A stretch of 64,000 bases of DNA from an uncultured Candidatus Rokubacteria bacterium (GTDB lineage Bacteria; Methylomirabilota; Methylomirabilia; Rokubacteriales; CSP1-6): positions 928,001 through 992,000 of the forward strand of contig CAVXJS010000021.1 in the NCBI GenBank assembly GCA_963762145.1. The letters are read 5' to 3'. Of this stretch, positions 1 to 3,639 are shown piece by piece. Under the pieces are notes generated by a model. The model was not told the DNA's origin. It saw only the letters and a program-made list of their open reading frames with translations, and did not search any database. The position numbers were made by a program, and so were the translations under genes. Positions within the stretch are counted from its first letter, which is position 1, and the number at the start of each line of letters is the position of its first letter.

Positions 1-518
1 GCGGTGCGCCAGCCGAAGACGAGAATCAGATACGTATTCAGCGGGTAGAAGATGATGGCGCTGGCCGAGGCGCCTGCGCTGATGACCCCCATCGCTGCGC
101 CACGCGAACGAACGAACCATCGGCCGACGATGGCGGCGGCCGGAATCTGGATGCAGGCAATGCCCGCACCGCCGAGGACGCCGAAAGCGATGTAGTACTG
201 CCAGAGCGTCGTCACCTGACCGGTCAACGCGAGGGCCACGCCGAGGAGCAGCCCTCCCGCCGGTACCAAGAGCCGGGCGCCCCACCGATCGTACAGCCAG
301 CCGGCCAGGGGCGAGAAGACGAGGAGCAGCAGCCAGCTCAAGGAGTAGCCGAGCGCCGCCTCGCCGCGACGCCACGCAAACTCGCCGAGGAGCGCGACGT
401 AGAACACGGAAAAGGTGGAGCGAACCGACCAGGCCAATGAGTTGACGATTGCGGATACGGACACCACGACCCAGCCGTACCGCGACTGCTGCTTTCCCCG
501 GAGCGGGTTCGAACTCAT
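1..518 (-). CDS. MFS transporter, 5' part (runs off the left edge)
   Basis: Manual translation from ATG at 518: MSSNPLRGKQQSRYGWVVVSVSAIVNSLAWSVRSTFSVFYVALLGEFAW...AGWLYDRWGAR. Contains MFS motif A and hydrophobic helices. Confidence 0.85.
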   Translation of the reverse strand, partial: MSSNPLRGKQQSRYGWVVVSVSAIVNSLAWSVRSTFSVFYVALLGEFAWRRGEAALGYSLSWLLLLVFSPLAGWLYDRWGARLLVPAGGLLLGVALALTGQVTTLWQYYIAFGVLGGAGIACIQIPAAAIVGRWFVRSRGAAMGVISAGASASAIIFYPLNTYLILVFGWRT

Positions 519-911
519 CGGCTACGCGTATAACACCGGTAGCAAACTGATGTGAAACGGGTGGCCTCCCTCATACGCTCCCGCACGAGCACCACGCCCG
601 ACCGCGACCCGACGGTGTAACGCGCCGAGGTCAGGGCCACCACCCGGTCCGGCTCGCGGATGTCGTCCGGACGCTCTCGGGCGGTGTCCACCACGCGCTG
701 CCACTCGCTCGGGCGCCCCTCCTGCACGACGAACTCAAGGGGCTCCCAGTGCGCGTTGACCATCACGTAAGAGGAGCAGGGTCACGTGCTCGGCATGCTC
801 GGAATAGACCGCGAAGTTCCAGGCTGCCTCCTCGGCGATCCACGTCGCCCCGAGCGGGTTGGGCAACTCTTCGCGGTTCGCCCAGGAAGGGGTGGAAGGT
901 TGGCCGCTCAT
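515..911 (-). pseudogene. glgX: Internally deleted glycogen debranching enzyme/isoamylase remnant
   Basis: N-terminal segment (PLGATWIAEEAAWNFAVYSEHAEHVTLLL) joins out of frame at ~770 to a C-terminal segment (YVMVNAHWEPLEFVVQEG..WQRVVDT). The catalytic domain is missing. Confidence 0.8.
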
Positions 912-1870
912 GTCTTCTTCGAATCGGCCGGCTCTGCCGGCGCGGCCTCGACGGGGAAGCCCGCCTCCCGCCACGCGTCAAGGCCCCCCGCGAGCGGGCG
1001 GATGCGCTGGACGCCGCGGCGCCGCAGAAGCAGCGCCACCCGGGCGCTGGTGGCTTCGTTGGGTCACGTGCAGTAGAGGATCACGTCTCGGTCGCGTGGG
1101 ATCTCCTGCGAGTGCCGCTCGAGCTCCTCCGGGCTCATGTGCACGGCTCCCGGAATCACTACCGAGTCAGCCCCGAAATCAAGTGCGTGACGGAGATCCA
1201 CGATCACTGGCGCTTCGCCGGCCTCGAGCTTCCCCTTGAGCTCGGCCGGGGTGATTCGCGCGATCCGCAAGGCCCGGATGAAGCGCTGGCGTCTGACGTA
1301 CTTGCCCGCGAGATAGAGGGAGAGCCCACCGAACATCAGGCCGAAAAGCCAGACGCCCAGATATCGCCCGTGGGTCGCGAGGCGTTCAGCCTGGTCGCTG
1401 AAGACATAGCCCAGCCCGGTGTACGTCCCGATCCACAGGAATGCCCCCAGAGCATCGACGAGCAAAAACCTGGACCGCCGCATCCGCAGGATGCCGGCGA
1501 GCGGCTGCGCCACCGTGTTCAGCCCCGGCACGAACTTGGCGACCAGGAGCGTCCACCCGCCGTACCGAGCGAACATATTCTGACTCCGTCGCACACAAGA
1601 GTCCGGCTCGAGCGAGATCCGGCACAGCAGGCGCATCACTTGACTCCCGCGGGCACGACCGATCTCGTACCAGATGACGTCGCTGAGCAACGACGCGGCT
1701 ACGCCCACCGCGATAGCGGACGGGAGACGGAGCAATCCGGCGCCGGCCAGCACCCCCGCCGCGAGGAGGACCGGCTCGCTCGGGACCGGCAGTGCGAGCT
1801 GCTCGGCGGCCACCCAGGCGAACAAGACGACATACCCGTGGTGGATCAGATACGCGGTGGCGTCCTTCAA
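908..1870 (-). CDS. DedA/VTT membrane protein fused to a rhodanese domain, probable selenoprotein (UGA at 1064-1066)
   Basis: DedA motifs (EQLALPVPSE, AKFVPG), then rhodanese VILYCT-UGA-PNEATSARVALLLRRRGVQRIRPLAGGLDAW. The read-through frame ends at TGA 908-910, overlapping the glgX ATG. TTG start at 1870 is inferred. Confidence 0.85.
1027..1057 (-). promoter_or_regulatory. SECIS-like hairpin downstream of the in-frame UGA
   Basis: mRNA reads GAAGC-(CACC bulge)-AGCGCC-[CGGGU]-GGCGCU-GCUUC. The loop begins 21 nt after the UGA and has G at its second position. Confidence 0.7.
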
Positions 1871-1896: not shown

Positions 1897-3639
1897 CTAG
1901 CTCTCCGGACCGTAGCGGTTGAGGATCAGGCGGTCGATGGCGCGGCCGAGATCCGGGATCTCGCCCCGGCGCCACCGCACCACGCTCTTCTCCAGCTGGC
2001 GCGCCAGCTCCCGATCCGCGAAGACGTCCAGCACCCATCGGGAGAAGTCGCCGCGGGCGGCGTGGTAGCCGAGCACGTCGCCCGGGACGGCGACAACCGC
2101 GTGGCGGAAGCCGTGCAGGCTCTCCGCCGCCGCGACCACGCGCCCATCGTGGTTGCGGAAGAAGAAGCGCCGCTCTGGAGGCACGTGCGAATCGGCGTAC
2201 TTCTTCACGTGCCGCACGTGCATCGTCTCGCGCGCCGCCGCGACGAACGTGAGCGCCATGGGGACGCCGTTGGGGTCCTGCTTAACGACGACGAACTTGC
2301 CTCGCGGCAGCTGGGGCAGCATGGCCGCCGGCCAGGCGTCCCCGCTGGCCGCGATGTCAGGCAGCGAGACGCTCAGGAAGGCCAGCTCGTCCGGCGCGGT
2401 GACGCGCGACAGGAGGTAGACGTCCATCGCCTTGACCACGCGCTCGCGCAGCCAGCTCGGGAGGTAGGTGACGAGACAGAAGCCCCGTTCCTCGATCCCC
2501 AGGGCCTCCTCGGCCACCCCCTCGCGATGCAGCGAGTAGTGCGCCTCGTCGAGCAGCACCCAGTGGGGCCGCCCCAAGCGCCGCCTGAGGTCGCCGATCG
2601 CGCGCAGCCCGGCCTCGATCACGTCCACCTTCCGCGCGTGGGGAAGCGCCGAGAGGTCGGCGATCACCGAAGCGCCCAGGTTCCGCTCGAGCCGGGTGAG
2701 CAATCGCACCATGTCCTGCTCGCTGTGGACCGCGGCCCAGGTGACGGCGGCGAGCCGGGAGAGCACCTGATAGTCTCCCTCCGGATCAATGACGCACACC
2801 GCGTACCGGGCGGCCACGAGGCGCTCGACCAGCGCTCCGGCCAGCCAGGACTTGCCCGAGAGCGGATCGCCGTGCACCAGCACGTTGACGCCGCGAGCCG
2901 GGATCGCCACCGGCTCGGACGTCTCGGCAGCCCAGCCGAGCGGGATTCGATGCCGGGCCGAGAACTGCACCGGCAGGAGACCCTGAAGGACGGGACCTAC
3001 GACCGCCGCCGCCACCGCCGCGCCGTTCTCCCCCGGGAAGATCCAGTCGGCACGCTCCTTCACCACCGCCATGCCGTCGGCCGGGCACGCCCGCCACCCG
3101 CAGACCTCGAAGAACGGCAGATCGTTCTCGGCGTCGCCGAAGGCCAGTACATCATGGAAGGACAAGCCGAGGAATCGCAGAGCGTTCTGGACTCCCGGGC
3201 CCTTGGAGACCCCCGCCGGCAGCAACATGAGCGCGCCACGGTTGTACACGTGGACGCGATTCACGCCCACCGCTGCCAGCGCCTCACGGATTGGCGATTC
3301 GTCCCCCCGCGCGGCTCCGACGATGACGCGCCCGACCTGATGGGAAATCCCGCGGCGATCCAACTCGGCCAGGAGTCGGGTGGGCGGAGGTGGACCCTGA
3401 TTCCGGATCATTGCCGACCCGGGATAGTGGAGCACCGCCCCGTTCTCGGCGACAACGGCCTCGAAGAGATCGAGGCAGTCACAGACGCGGCTCAACTCGA
3501 AGAAGGTGCGTCCCGTGACGAGAACGAGCCGCAGCCCAGCCTGCCGGGCGCGCTCGAGGGCTTCCCGTACCCCCGGGCCGATCCGGTCGTCGGAGGCCAG
3601 GGTACCGTCGAAATCGAACGCCAACGCTTTGAAGAACAT
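1897..3639 (-). CDS. HAD-IIB (Cof-like) phosphatase fused to a P-loop ATPase domain
   Basis: HAD motifs DFDGTL and GDAENDL; Walker A GDPLSGKS; Walker B LLDEAH. Confidence 0.85.
   Translation of the reverse strand: MFFKALAFDFDGTLASDDRIGPGVREALERARQAGLRLVLVTGRTFFELSRVCDCLDLFEAVVAENGAVLHYPGSAMIRNQGPPPPTRLLAELDRRGISHQVGRVIVGAARGDESPIREALAAVGVNRVHVYNRGALMLLPAGVSKGPGVQNALRFLGLSFHDVLAFGDAENDLPFFEVCGWRACPADGMAVVKERADWIFPGENGAAVAAAVVGPVLQGLLPVQFSARHRIPLGWAAETSEPVAIPARGVNVLVHGDPLSGKSWLAGALVERLVAARYAVCVIDPEGDYQVLSRLAAVTWAAVHSEQDMVRLLTRLERNLGASVIADLSALPHARKVDVIEAGLRAIGDLRRRLGRPHWVLLDEAHYSLHREGVAEEALGIEERGFCLVTYLPSWLRERVVKAMDVYLLSRVTAPDELAFLSVSLPDIAASGDAWPAAMLPQLPRGKFVVVKQDPNGVPMALTFVAAARETMHVRHVKKYADSHVPPERRFFFRNHDGRVVAAAESLHGFRHAVVAVPGDVLGYHAARGDFSRWVLDVFADRELARQLEKSVVRWRRGEIPDLGRAIDRLILNRYGPES

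Follow-up and report, generated by a model that had tools for sequence, protein, structure and literature searches.

A DedA-rhodanese membrane protein of soil Rokubacteria with a probable selenocysteine in its rhodanese active-site loop

The question raised by this locus is whether a gene for a DedA-type membrane protein ends where gene callers end it, or whether its in-frame TGA is read as selenocysteine (Sec, U). The gene lies on the minus strand of a 64,000-nucleotide (nt) stretch of a soil Rokubacteria genome (GCA_963762145.1, 6.26 Mb in 25 contigs; contig CAVXJS010000021.1, positions 928,001-992,000), which we refer to as the window. Its open reading frame (ORF) runs from a TTG at 1868-1870 to the residues RDRDVILYCT, where it meets a TGA at 1064-1066, and the frame is then open for 51 more codons (PNEATSARVALLLRRRG...GGLDAW...KKT; the same stretch is also written PNEATSARVALLLRRRGVQRIRPLAGGLDAWREAGFPVE...KKT), up to a second TGA at 908-910. 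The original prediction proposed that the stop after VILYCT conceals a Sec-containing rhodanese fused to a DedA domain, and a Pfam search agrees with it: in a 378-amino-acid (aa) read-through translation, in which the TGA is residue 325 (residue 269 of the 320-aa protein), the Rhodanese family PF00581 matches residues 263-358 and spans the TGA (48.3 bits against a cut-off of 22.2, 1.5e-12). The codon sits in the active-site loop of that domain, LYCT-U-PNEATS. From the comparison with homologues, we consider it very probable that this UGA is decoded as Sec. The TTG is the likely start codon: the upstream gene stops at 1897-1899 and homologues start at the corresponding position, which makes 320 codons the natural reading. 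Public gene calls for close relatives have the same start and are 268 aa long, ending ...LYCT at the TGA.

The plainest alternative is that the TGA is an ordinary stop, which would make the product a DedA protein of 268 aa whose rhodanese stump is dead, and the 51 codons behind it a decaying relic. Public pipelines call the gene in just this way: among the 120 database homologues listed, 59 end in ...YCT, 54 of these at 268 aa and named DedA or VTT domain-containing protein (the truncated ones include NCBI records 'VTT domain-containing protein' from metagenome-assembled genomes (MAGs) of Candidatus Rokuibacteriota), and 42 longer ones read YCxCPxE. However, beyond the TGA the frame is open and retains the hallmark residues of a rhodanese in 87 TGA loci from several phyla. 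The survey of relatives covered 61 genomes (this one and 60 others) and 47 near-full-length loci, leaving out fragments, single-domain matches and one genome (G029). TGA occupies the exact column in 38 of these loci, from 32 genomes; the remainder have Cys (2), Glu (1), Ser (1) or a degenerate loop (5). A second set, the best 80 of 593 from a scan of one genome per species, reaches into other phyla; it was ranked by likeness to a Sec form, so that its 49 TGA and 31 Cys loci do not give a frequency, and 2 of the 80 duplicate loci of the relatives. By MAG label most of these loci belong to Acidobacteriota, the others to Nitrospirota, Dormibacterota, Baltobacteraceae, Planctomycetota, Binatia, Chloroflexota, Verrucomicrobiia and a 'delta proteobacterium'. 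U269 aligns with the invariant second Cys of the YCxCPNE homologues, and with 87 TGA and 33 Cys at this column in the two sets together, the predicted alternation of UGA and Cys is borne out. One further homologue (P0025, 241 aa, 88% identical) has Cys at the Sec site, as read from its protein record only, and six of the relatives' genomes hold two Sec-type DedA-rhodanese copies each (G003, G015, G034, G044, G046 and G048).

Past the TGA, the residues A276, A279, L282, G286, P292, L293, G296 and W300 are at least 97% conserved (118 rows). The ratio of nonsynonymous to synonymous differences (pN/pS) is 0.51 downstream, which resembles the 0.41 found upstream and speaks against a decaying relic; at such divergence 0.51 is only modestly below 1, and the conservation of residues is the stronger argument. 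A sequencing or assembly error, or a nonsense mutation peculiar to one strain, can be regarded as refuted: the same TGA stands in the 32 relatives' genomes and the 49 loci of other phyla, and contigs from three other runs, belonging to three studies, have no variant at 1064-1066. The TGA is also bridged by a 441-nt piece from another study, belonging to a strain about 90% alike. One result weighs on the other side. The sole RNA-library contig found (X17) belongs to a relative, being 94% alike, and spans 1078-1344 without reaching the TGA; we rejected it as a sign that the gene is expressed or read through.

If the UGA is decoded as Sec, an RNA hairpin able to recruit the decoding machinery is expected behind it. 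The original prediction placed a bulged 11-bp hairpin there. A hairpin is indeed present at this site, although the one that is conserved has a simple stem of 7 bp without a bulge, capped by a loop of 5 nt (1031-1049), and lies inside the codons for S-A-R-V-A. A published model of the bacterial selenocysteine insertion sequence (SECIS), as given in PMC13188914, calls for a loop of 3-9 nt, a stem of 4-16 bp, a G in the first two loop positions, a spacing of 16-37 nt from the UGA and a minimum free energy (MFE) of −7.5 or less. All four of its rules agree with the hairpin found here (5-nt loop, 7-bp stem, loop beginning CG, spacing of 21 nt and −12.1 kcal/mol), so that the SECIS search proposed in the original prediction turned out in its favour. 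RNAalifold, run unguided on 38 aligned Sec forms, returned the helix 18-24/30-36 (counted in nt from the U of UGA) with the loop CGGGU; 95.9% of the alignment cells in the helix are paired, and none of 500 shuffles reached as high a value. At the closing pair 18-36, 18 rows have GC, 9 have CG and 3 have GU, while 8 rows are unpaired there; one row also has a compensatory change inside the stem. The loop consensus is CG(G/U)GU, and all 49 Sec forms from other phyla have G as the second loop nucleotide. Folding of the single sequence gave no such signal: the 76 nt past the UGA do not stand out (z = −0.57; 58 of 200 shuffles fold equally well or better), a result that would suit an ordinary stop. 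The MFE structure of these 76 nt is a different, non-conserved 10-bp stem, and the GC-rich DNA makes a single-sequence fold uninformative. The significance of the hairpin comes from the comparison with relatives only.

The codons that hold the hairpin are frozen at their synonymous sites. Among the Sec forms of the relatives, the codons at +6 to +10 are AGC (37 of 37), GCC (36 of 37), CGG (35 of 38), GTG (31 of 31) and GCG (37 of 38), whereas the codons of flanking Gly, Leu, Pro and Ala residues that are no less conserved vary freely. Synonymous divergence (pS) is 0.19 in the hairpin codons, compared with 0.57 downstream (codons +12 to +40) and 0.47 upstream. The Cys forms provide a built-in control of similar GC content (0.64 and 0.66 in the two groups). 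Among the Sec forms from other phyla (n = 49), all 7 pairs form in 37 rows and 6 of 7 in the other 12; none of the 31 Cys forms has all 7 pairs (3-6 are formed). Likewise, Ala+7 is GCC in 49 of 49 Sec forms versus 13 of 31 Cys forms, and Ala+10 is GCG in 49 of 49 versus 14 of 30. This freeze is the strongest argument for Sec decoding and, as a SECIS contained within five conserved codons, is a clean case of its kind. In run X10, several short contigs match only positions 1023-1076 (40-55 nt, comprising the active-site codons and the hairpin) at 90-95%, with unlike sequence on both sides; they may reflect extreme DNA conservation of this segment in other organisms.

A conserved hairpin with frozen synonymous sites, confined in the comparison across phyla to the TGA forms, is hard to reconcile with an ordinary stop. 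Among the relatives, however, 2 Cys forms and 1 Ser form keep the hairpin, and the hairpin alone is therefore no proof of Sec decoding. These exceptions fit a recent replacement of Sec by Cys. One of them is a Cys paralogue in the genome under study (L048, C9:385115-386032, plus strand; 48% identical, YCACPNE), which retains the hairpin sequence after its TGC. The Cys form of genome G014 (L047) keeps all 7 pairs. Both hairpins may be fossils of a SECIS that has outlasted a recent change from Sec to Cys.

The genome has the full machinery for Sec, a further point against an ordinary stop, and the expected selA, selB, selC and selD are all in place, the last in two copies above the cut-off. The tRNA-Sec gene selC scores 69.3 bits (gathering score 47) and is identified by ARAGORN as SeC, anticodon tca; selA is found at 500 bits, and the SelB wing domain (74.6 bits) lies in a 667-aa frame beside selA. 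The three genes are clustered on contig C9 (751780-756726). One selD copy (L011, C11:419505-420437) has an in-frame TGA of its own, so that the selenophosphate synthetase is itself a selenoprotein, a known arrangement. Each of the observations that the original prediction had named as fatal to it (another codon in place of the TGA, a genome lacking selABC, no homologue with a conserved UGA) turned out the other way: the TGA is unchanged in the independent assemblies, the genes are there and homologues share the codon. We consider an ordinary stop very unlikely.

With the TGA read as Sec, the gene would encode one 320-residue inner-membrane selenoprotein, with a transporter-like DedA/VTT domain in its N-terminal part, a rhodanese domain in its C-terminal part, and a last transmembrane helix and a basic linker between the two (Table 1). 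SelB and tRNA-Sec, recruited by the 7-bp/5-nt hairpin, would decode the UGA; under selenium scarcity the product would be the truncated 268-aa protein that gene callers predict. An AlphaFold2 model built from an 18-row alignment (mean predicted local distance difference test score 81.6, predicted template modelling score 0.73) has eight helices up to residue 200, followed by a rhodanese fold. A Foldseek search of the model against the PDB returned rhodanese domains only, among them the membrane-anchored YgaP (5hbl/5hbo, E about 6e-4). The rhodanese domain and the pair C83/C92 would both lie on the cytoplasmic face because the linker is basic and the stretch around the pair is Arg-rich (positive-inside rule). 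The protein could thus present a cytoplasm-facing, Sec-dependent sulfurtransferase or redox domain tethered to a divergent DedA transporter. At the mouth of that transporter it might handle sulfane-sulfur or selenium species or carry out a thiol/selenol redox step, the substrate of the transporter being perhaps something other than undecaprenyl phosphate. Taken as a whole, this explanation appears highly probable to us; the decoding as Sec follows from the comparison of homologues, and the chemistry and any coupling to transport are proposals. The role in selenium/sulfur trafficking put forward in the original prediction is one that we, too, can only infer.

Table 1. Coordinates in the window of the predicted selenoprotein gene, its parts and the ORFs behind its stop
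Feature	Position	Strand	Details
Whole gene, predicted DedA-rhodanese selenoprotein, 320 codons	908..1870	-	TTG start 1868-1870; predicted Sec is codon 269; TGA stop 908-910
DedA/VTT membrane domain	1406..1786	-	residues 29-155; PF09335, 2e-17, 64.3 bits vs cut-off 33.9; hhalign probability to E. coli YghB 97.3%
Cys pair C83...C92, motif LCRISLEPDSC	1595..1624	-	Arg-rich loop of DedA domain; family-specific, no YghB counterpart
Last transmembrane helix, about residues 172-192, then basic linker KYVRRQRFIRALRIAR	1295..1357	-	AlphaFold2 helix 158-200
Rhodanese domain, interrupted by TGA	965..1252	-	residues 207-302; PF00581 1.5e-12; PDB rhodanese matches 6mxv, 3tp9
Cys267 codon TGC, two residues before Sec	1070..1072	-	candidate resolving Cys; Cys in 119/125 rows
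Predicted Sec codon UGA, residue 269	1064..1066	-	same-column TGA in relatives and other phyla; stable in independent assemblies
SECIS hairpin	1031..1049	-	stem CAGCGCC/GGCGCUG (7 bp), loop CGGGU (5 nt); begins 14 nt past UGA; −12.1 kcal/mol
True stop TGA, without hairpin	908..910	-	overlaps ATG (909-911) of 58-aa CBM48 fragment ORF (735-911)
ORF 1 past stop, 58 aa	735..911	-	matches CBM48 (isoamylase N-terminal) positions 1-34 of 83 only
ORF 2 past stop	515..766	-	no Pfam match

Which residue of the active-site loop acts as the nucleophile is harder to settle, and two positions compete for the role. We lean towards Sec269 as the rhodanese nucleophile at the head of the loop U-P-N-E-A-T, with Cys267 as a possible resolving thiol in a CxU arrangement. 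The active-site loop of sulfurtransferases usually has six residues, and counting from U gives six. In the best PDB match, 6mxv (70 bits), both catalytic Cys residues align to the U column without a gap. In addition, the first Cys is missing from three loci that keep the second position: L042, in which Cys267 is Tyr and U is retained, P0140 and P0164. A less probable, but by no means negligible, reading is that the protein is a real selenoprotein in which Cys267 is the canonical catalytic residue; Sec269 would then lie at +2 in an enlarged 8-residue loop, and the domain would be a selenenylsulfide-forming CxU oxidoreductase instead of a Sec sulfurtransferase. Several observations tell against our preference for Sec269. 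In the HMMER alignments to 3tp9 and 6pfz, which open a gap of 2 residues, it is the first Cys that falls on the catalytic Cys, and the model, with a strand at 263-266, a loop at 267-272 and a helix from 273, puts Cys267 directly after the strand and suits it as the canonical residue about equally well. Both Cys are invariant in the Cys forms, and a review files a related family under the motif 'CxU'. Loci that lack the second position also occur (L052, L056 and several cluster representatives). Natural losses of either residue on its own are thus on record, and the identity of the catalytic residue is ambiguous.

The DedA domain has a Cys pair of its own, C83 and C92, which is invariant in the family alignment A2 and at least 97% conserved in 118 Sec/Cys rows. 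All 46 truncated (Sec-form) cluster representatives that reach these columns retain C83, C92 and C267. In one Rokubacteria clade (L059-L063), and partly in L052, the pair is lost together with the rhodanese site. A wider sample disagrees with this pattern: in 89 representatives that have a letter in each of the four columns, the rhodanese Cys/Sec alone was lost in 9, the DedA Cys alone in 7 and both in 2. We therefore dropped co-loss as evidence of coupling, and the functional link between the rhodanese site and the DedA pair is weak. A relay through all four Cys/Sec residues is kept as a hypothesis, because co-variation is absent from these 89 representatives.

The distribution of Sec and Cys forms bears on the history of the family. 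A FastTree phylogeny of 125 distinct rows (85 U, 33 C and 7 other) requires at least 9 changes between U and C, of which 5-7 are forced by well-supported branches. The Cys forms are nested within U clades, although the direction of change is unproven as the tree is unrooted. The most far-reaching proposal consistent with these data is that the DedA-rhodanese family is at root a selenoenzyme-transporter, in which Sec269/Cys267 and Cys83/Cys92 form a chalcogen relay on the cytoplasmic face and Sec is the older state; we think this improbable. Under it, a sulfur or selenium oxyanion (thiosulfate, selenite or polysulfide) would be captured or reduced while the DedA domain moves it across the membrane, and Sec, ancestral in the sampled family, would have been replaced by Cys at least 5-9 times. 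Were this true, the old and unexplained connection of a DedA protein with selenite resistance would gain a mechanistic basis, and the DedA-rhodanese fusions would gain a function.

Catalogues have listed rhodanese selenoproteins since 2004-2005, and the preferred reading, a Sec-decoded DedA-rhodanese, has to be placed among them. A 2022 review lists a 'COG0607 form 2, CxU' rhodanese, and the table of a 2026 review gives five rhodanese selenoprotein forms, including 'form 3, NF041203, CxU'. The best NCBIfam match of the C-terminal domain is this NF041203, 'rhodanese_LYCAU' (residues 200-309, model positions 17-125 of 126, 83.8 bits). The two share the rhodanese fold and L-Y-C-x-U at the same place (here LYCTU, residues 265-269; the motif is taken from the name of the model). 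We do not assign the protein to that family, as its scores lie below the curated cut-off of 115 (83.8 bits for the protein and 79.2 in the genome scan, where this gene is the best match in its own genome). Unlike NF041203, a stand-alone protein of about 126 aa, the domain here is the C-terminus of a DedA membrane protein. The 2026 review nowhere speaks of DedA, and a search of full-text literature, which did not extend to supplements that might list the family, found no paper joining DedA/VTT with a selenoprotein. The same review cites Deng et al. (2026) for 63 selenoprotein genes in one Methylomirabilota MAG. The gene product is thus a fusion variant of the catalogued CxU type of rhodanese selenoprotein and not a new kind of system, contrary to the novelty that the original prediction had expected.

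Fusions of the same two domains with Cys are known. PF09335 and PF00581 occur in one chain here, and homologues of 311-333 aa are annotated DedA/rhodanese. The DedA-rhodanese architecture is described in PMC10127716 and PMC12893004, according to which such fusions are part of the approximately 7% of COG0586 proteins with extra domains; Pseudomonas aeruginosa PA1209 is one example. The protein resembles PA1209 (COG0586 plus PF00581, 311 aa; compared by description) in its two domains and in length. The Cys-type full-length homologues (53-60% identity) read YC[TAS]CPNE and keep the Cys pair of LCRISLEPDSC; they differ in having Cys at the Sec position and no SECIS hairpin. The passages on these fusions in PMC10127716 leave their function aside, stating that the 'connection to UndP is unclear', UndP being undecaprenyl phosphate. 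That the site holds Sec, a residue of catalytic grade, speaks for an enzymatic or redox function of the rhodanese domain in these fusions.

The membrane domain is homologous to the DedA flippases of undecaprenyl phosphate (E. coli YghB/YqjA, UptA), with YghB E39 corresponding to E23 and R130 to K112, a column that holds Lys in 120 rows and Arg in 5 (125 rows). PMC10127716 reports that R130 and R136 of YghB likely bind the phosphate of undecaprenyl phosphate. In contrast to YghB, the position of R136 is here occupied by Asn (45), Ser (45), Gly (18), Thr (14), His (2) or Ala (1) in 125 rows, the D51 position is variable, and the C83/C92 pair has no counterpart. Taken with the presence of Sec, the absence of one phosphate-binding Arg suggests that the substrate is not undecaprenyl phosphate. 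Membership in the UptA flippases was rejected (55 bits against 300 and 45.7 against 250, with the basic residue of the R136 type lost).

Other membrane systems offer looser parallels, two of them among the selenoproteins tabulated in the review. The YeeE/YedE thiosulfate transporter family (GUxSG) also has Sec or Cys beside a membrane transport domain for chalcogen anions, and the TsoB rhodanese/DsbD fusion (NF045694) carries Sec or Cys on or beside a membrane domain that handles them; in both cases the membrane folds are unrelated to DedA. By analogy with these systems, drawn in part from general background, transporter-coupled sulfur transfer might be expected here. Membership in NF045694 itself was rejected (22 bits, far below the cut-off of 805). 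E. coli YgaP likewise tethers a rhodanese to the inner membrane, but it has a single catalytic Cys, no Sec and no DedA domain. Its domain order is the opposite one, and its anchor a simple pair of helices.

The same Sec module is found on another membrane protein of this genome. A second selenoprotein gene (L146:1441-3072, minus strand, equivalent to C9 about 262960-264591; 543 aa) encodes a protein in which a signal peptide is followed by a Trypsin_2 domain (4.9e-25), a membrane helix and, at the C-terminus, a rhodanese with VVAYCT-U-PDEETSARVA; its TGA is followed by the near-identical hairpin CAGCGCC-CGGGU-GGCGCG. At least two membrane proteins of the genome, unrelated to each other, thus carry a fused U-P-(N/D)-E rhodanese with its SECIS. 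Among the relatives, many other rhodanese matches (query residues about 204-315) lie in open frames of 500-740 aa with one in-frame TGA, which suggests several further types of Sec-rhodanese fusion across Rokubacteria.

The recurrence of the module behind the membrane anchor of an unrelated trypsin-like protease, where it looks like a portable regulatory unit, lends some appeal to another reading, namely that the Sec-rhodanese is a sensor of sulfane-sulfur, selenium or redox state that gates the DedA transporter, with the UGA tying output to selenium supply. The persistence of fusions with a degenerate rhodanese (L059-L063) and the lack of a conserved partner gene are in keeping with such a role. 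However, Sec is as a rule catalytic in known selenoproteins, as PMC13188914 summarises them, and the active-site loop is conserved in the manner of an enzyme. We rate a sensor as rather unlikely and retain an enzymatic or redox role as the preferred one.

The genes around the locus do not clarify that role, and this counts against our functional proposal. In a survey of 80 loci with 3-kb flanks, no partner family was widely shared and none occurred at more than 20 loci. The largest cluster other than the gene itself (20 loci) looks like an antisense ORF; it is followed by SDR (18), M50 (16), YceI-like (15), nitroreductase-like (13) and MarR-like (12) clusters, with family names read from example sequences and not from Pfam calls. 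Upstream of the gene in the window lies a HAD/HerA-like ATPase fusion; the other genes around the locus are two divergent Usp genes, DUF488, an M50-CBS protease, a glgX remnant and an MFS gene. These surroundings indicate no pathway. The placement in a stress cluster that had been claimed for the gene is weak: it came down to the two divergent Usp genes, about 1.9 kb away, and the context is not conserved.

For annotation, the consequences of a Sec-decoded UGA would be broad. About one third of the best-matching clusters are stored as 268-aa 'DedA/VTT domain' proteins cut at the Sec codon (47 of the best 150 representatives of 50%-identity clusters end exactly before the Sec column); the real products would be at least 51 residues longer and carry the active site. 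By MAG label, such a transporter-fused selenoprotein would occur commonly in phyla that dominate soils (Rokubacteria, Acidobacteriota, Nitrospirota, Dormibacterota and others), which points to a wider use of selenium in soils than current catalogues reflect.

Finally, the ends of the gene merit comment. The ATGA overlap at 908-911 that the original prediction described is present; translational coupling, which it took the overlap to imply, is a weak proposition, the partner being only the 58-aa CBM48 fragment. The two ORFs at 515-911 look like the remnant of a deleted debranching enzyme of the glgX type, judging from their sequence, and a close relative (L019) has a similar stump. On the other side, the upstream gene (1897-3639, minus strand) is unusual in joining a HAD-type phosphatase (Hydrolase_3, 5e-27) to a HerA/AAA-like P-loop region (DUF87, 1.9e-5; AAA_16, 3.5e-5).

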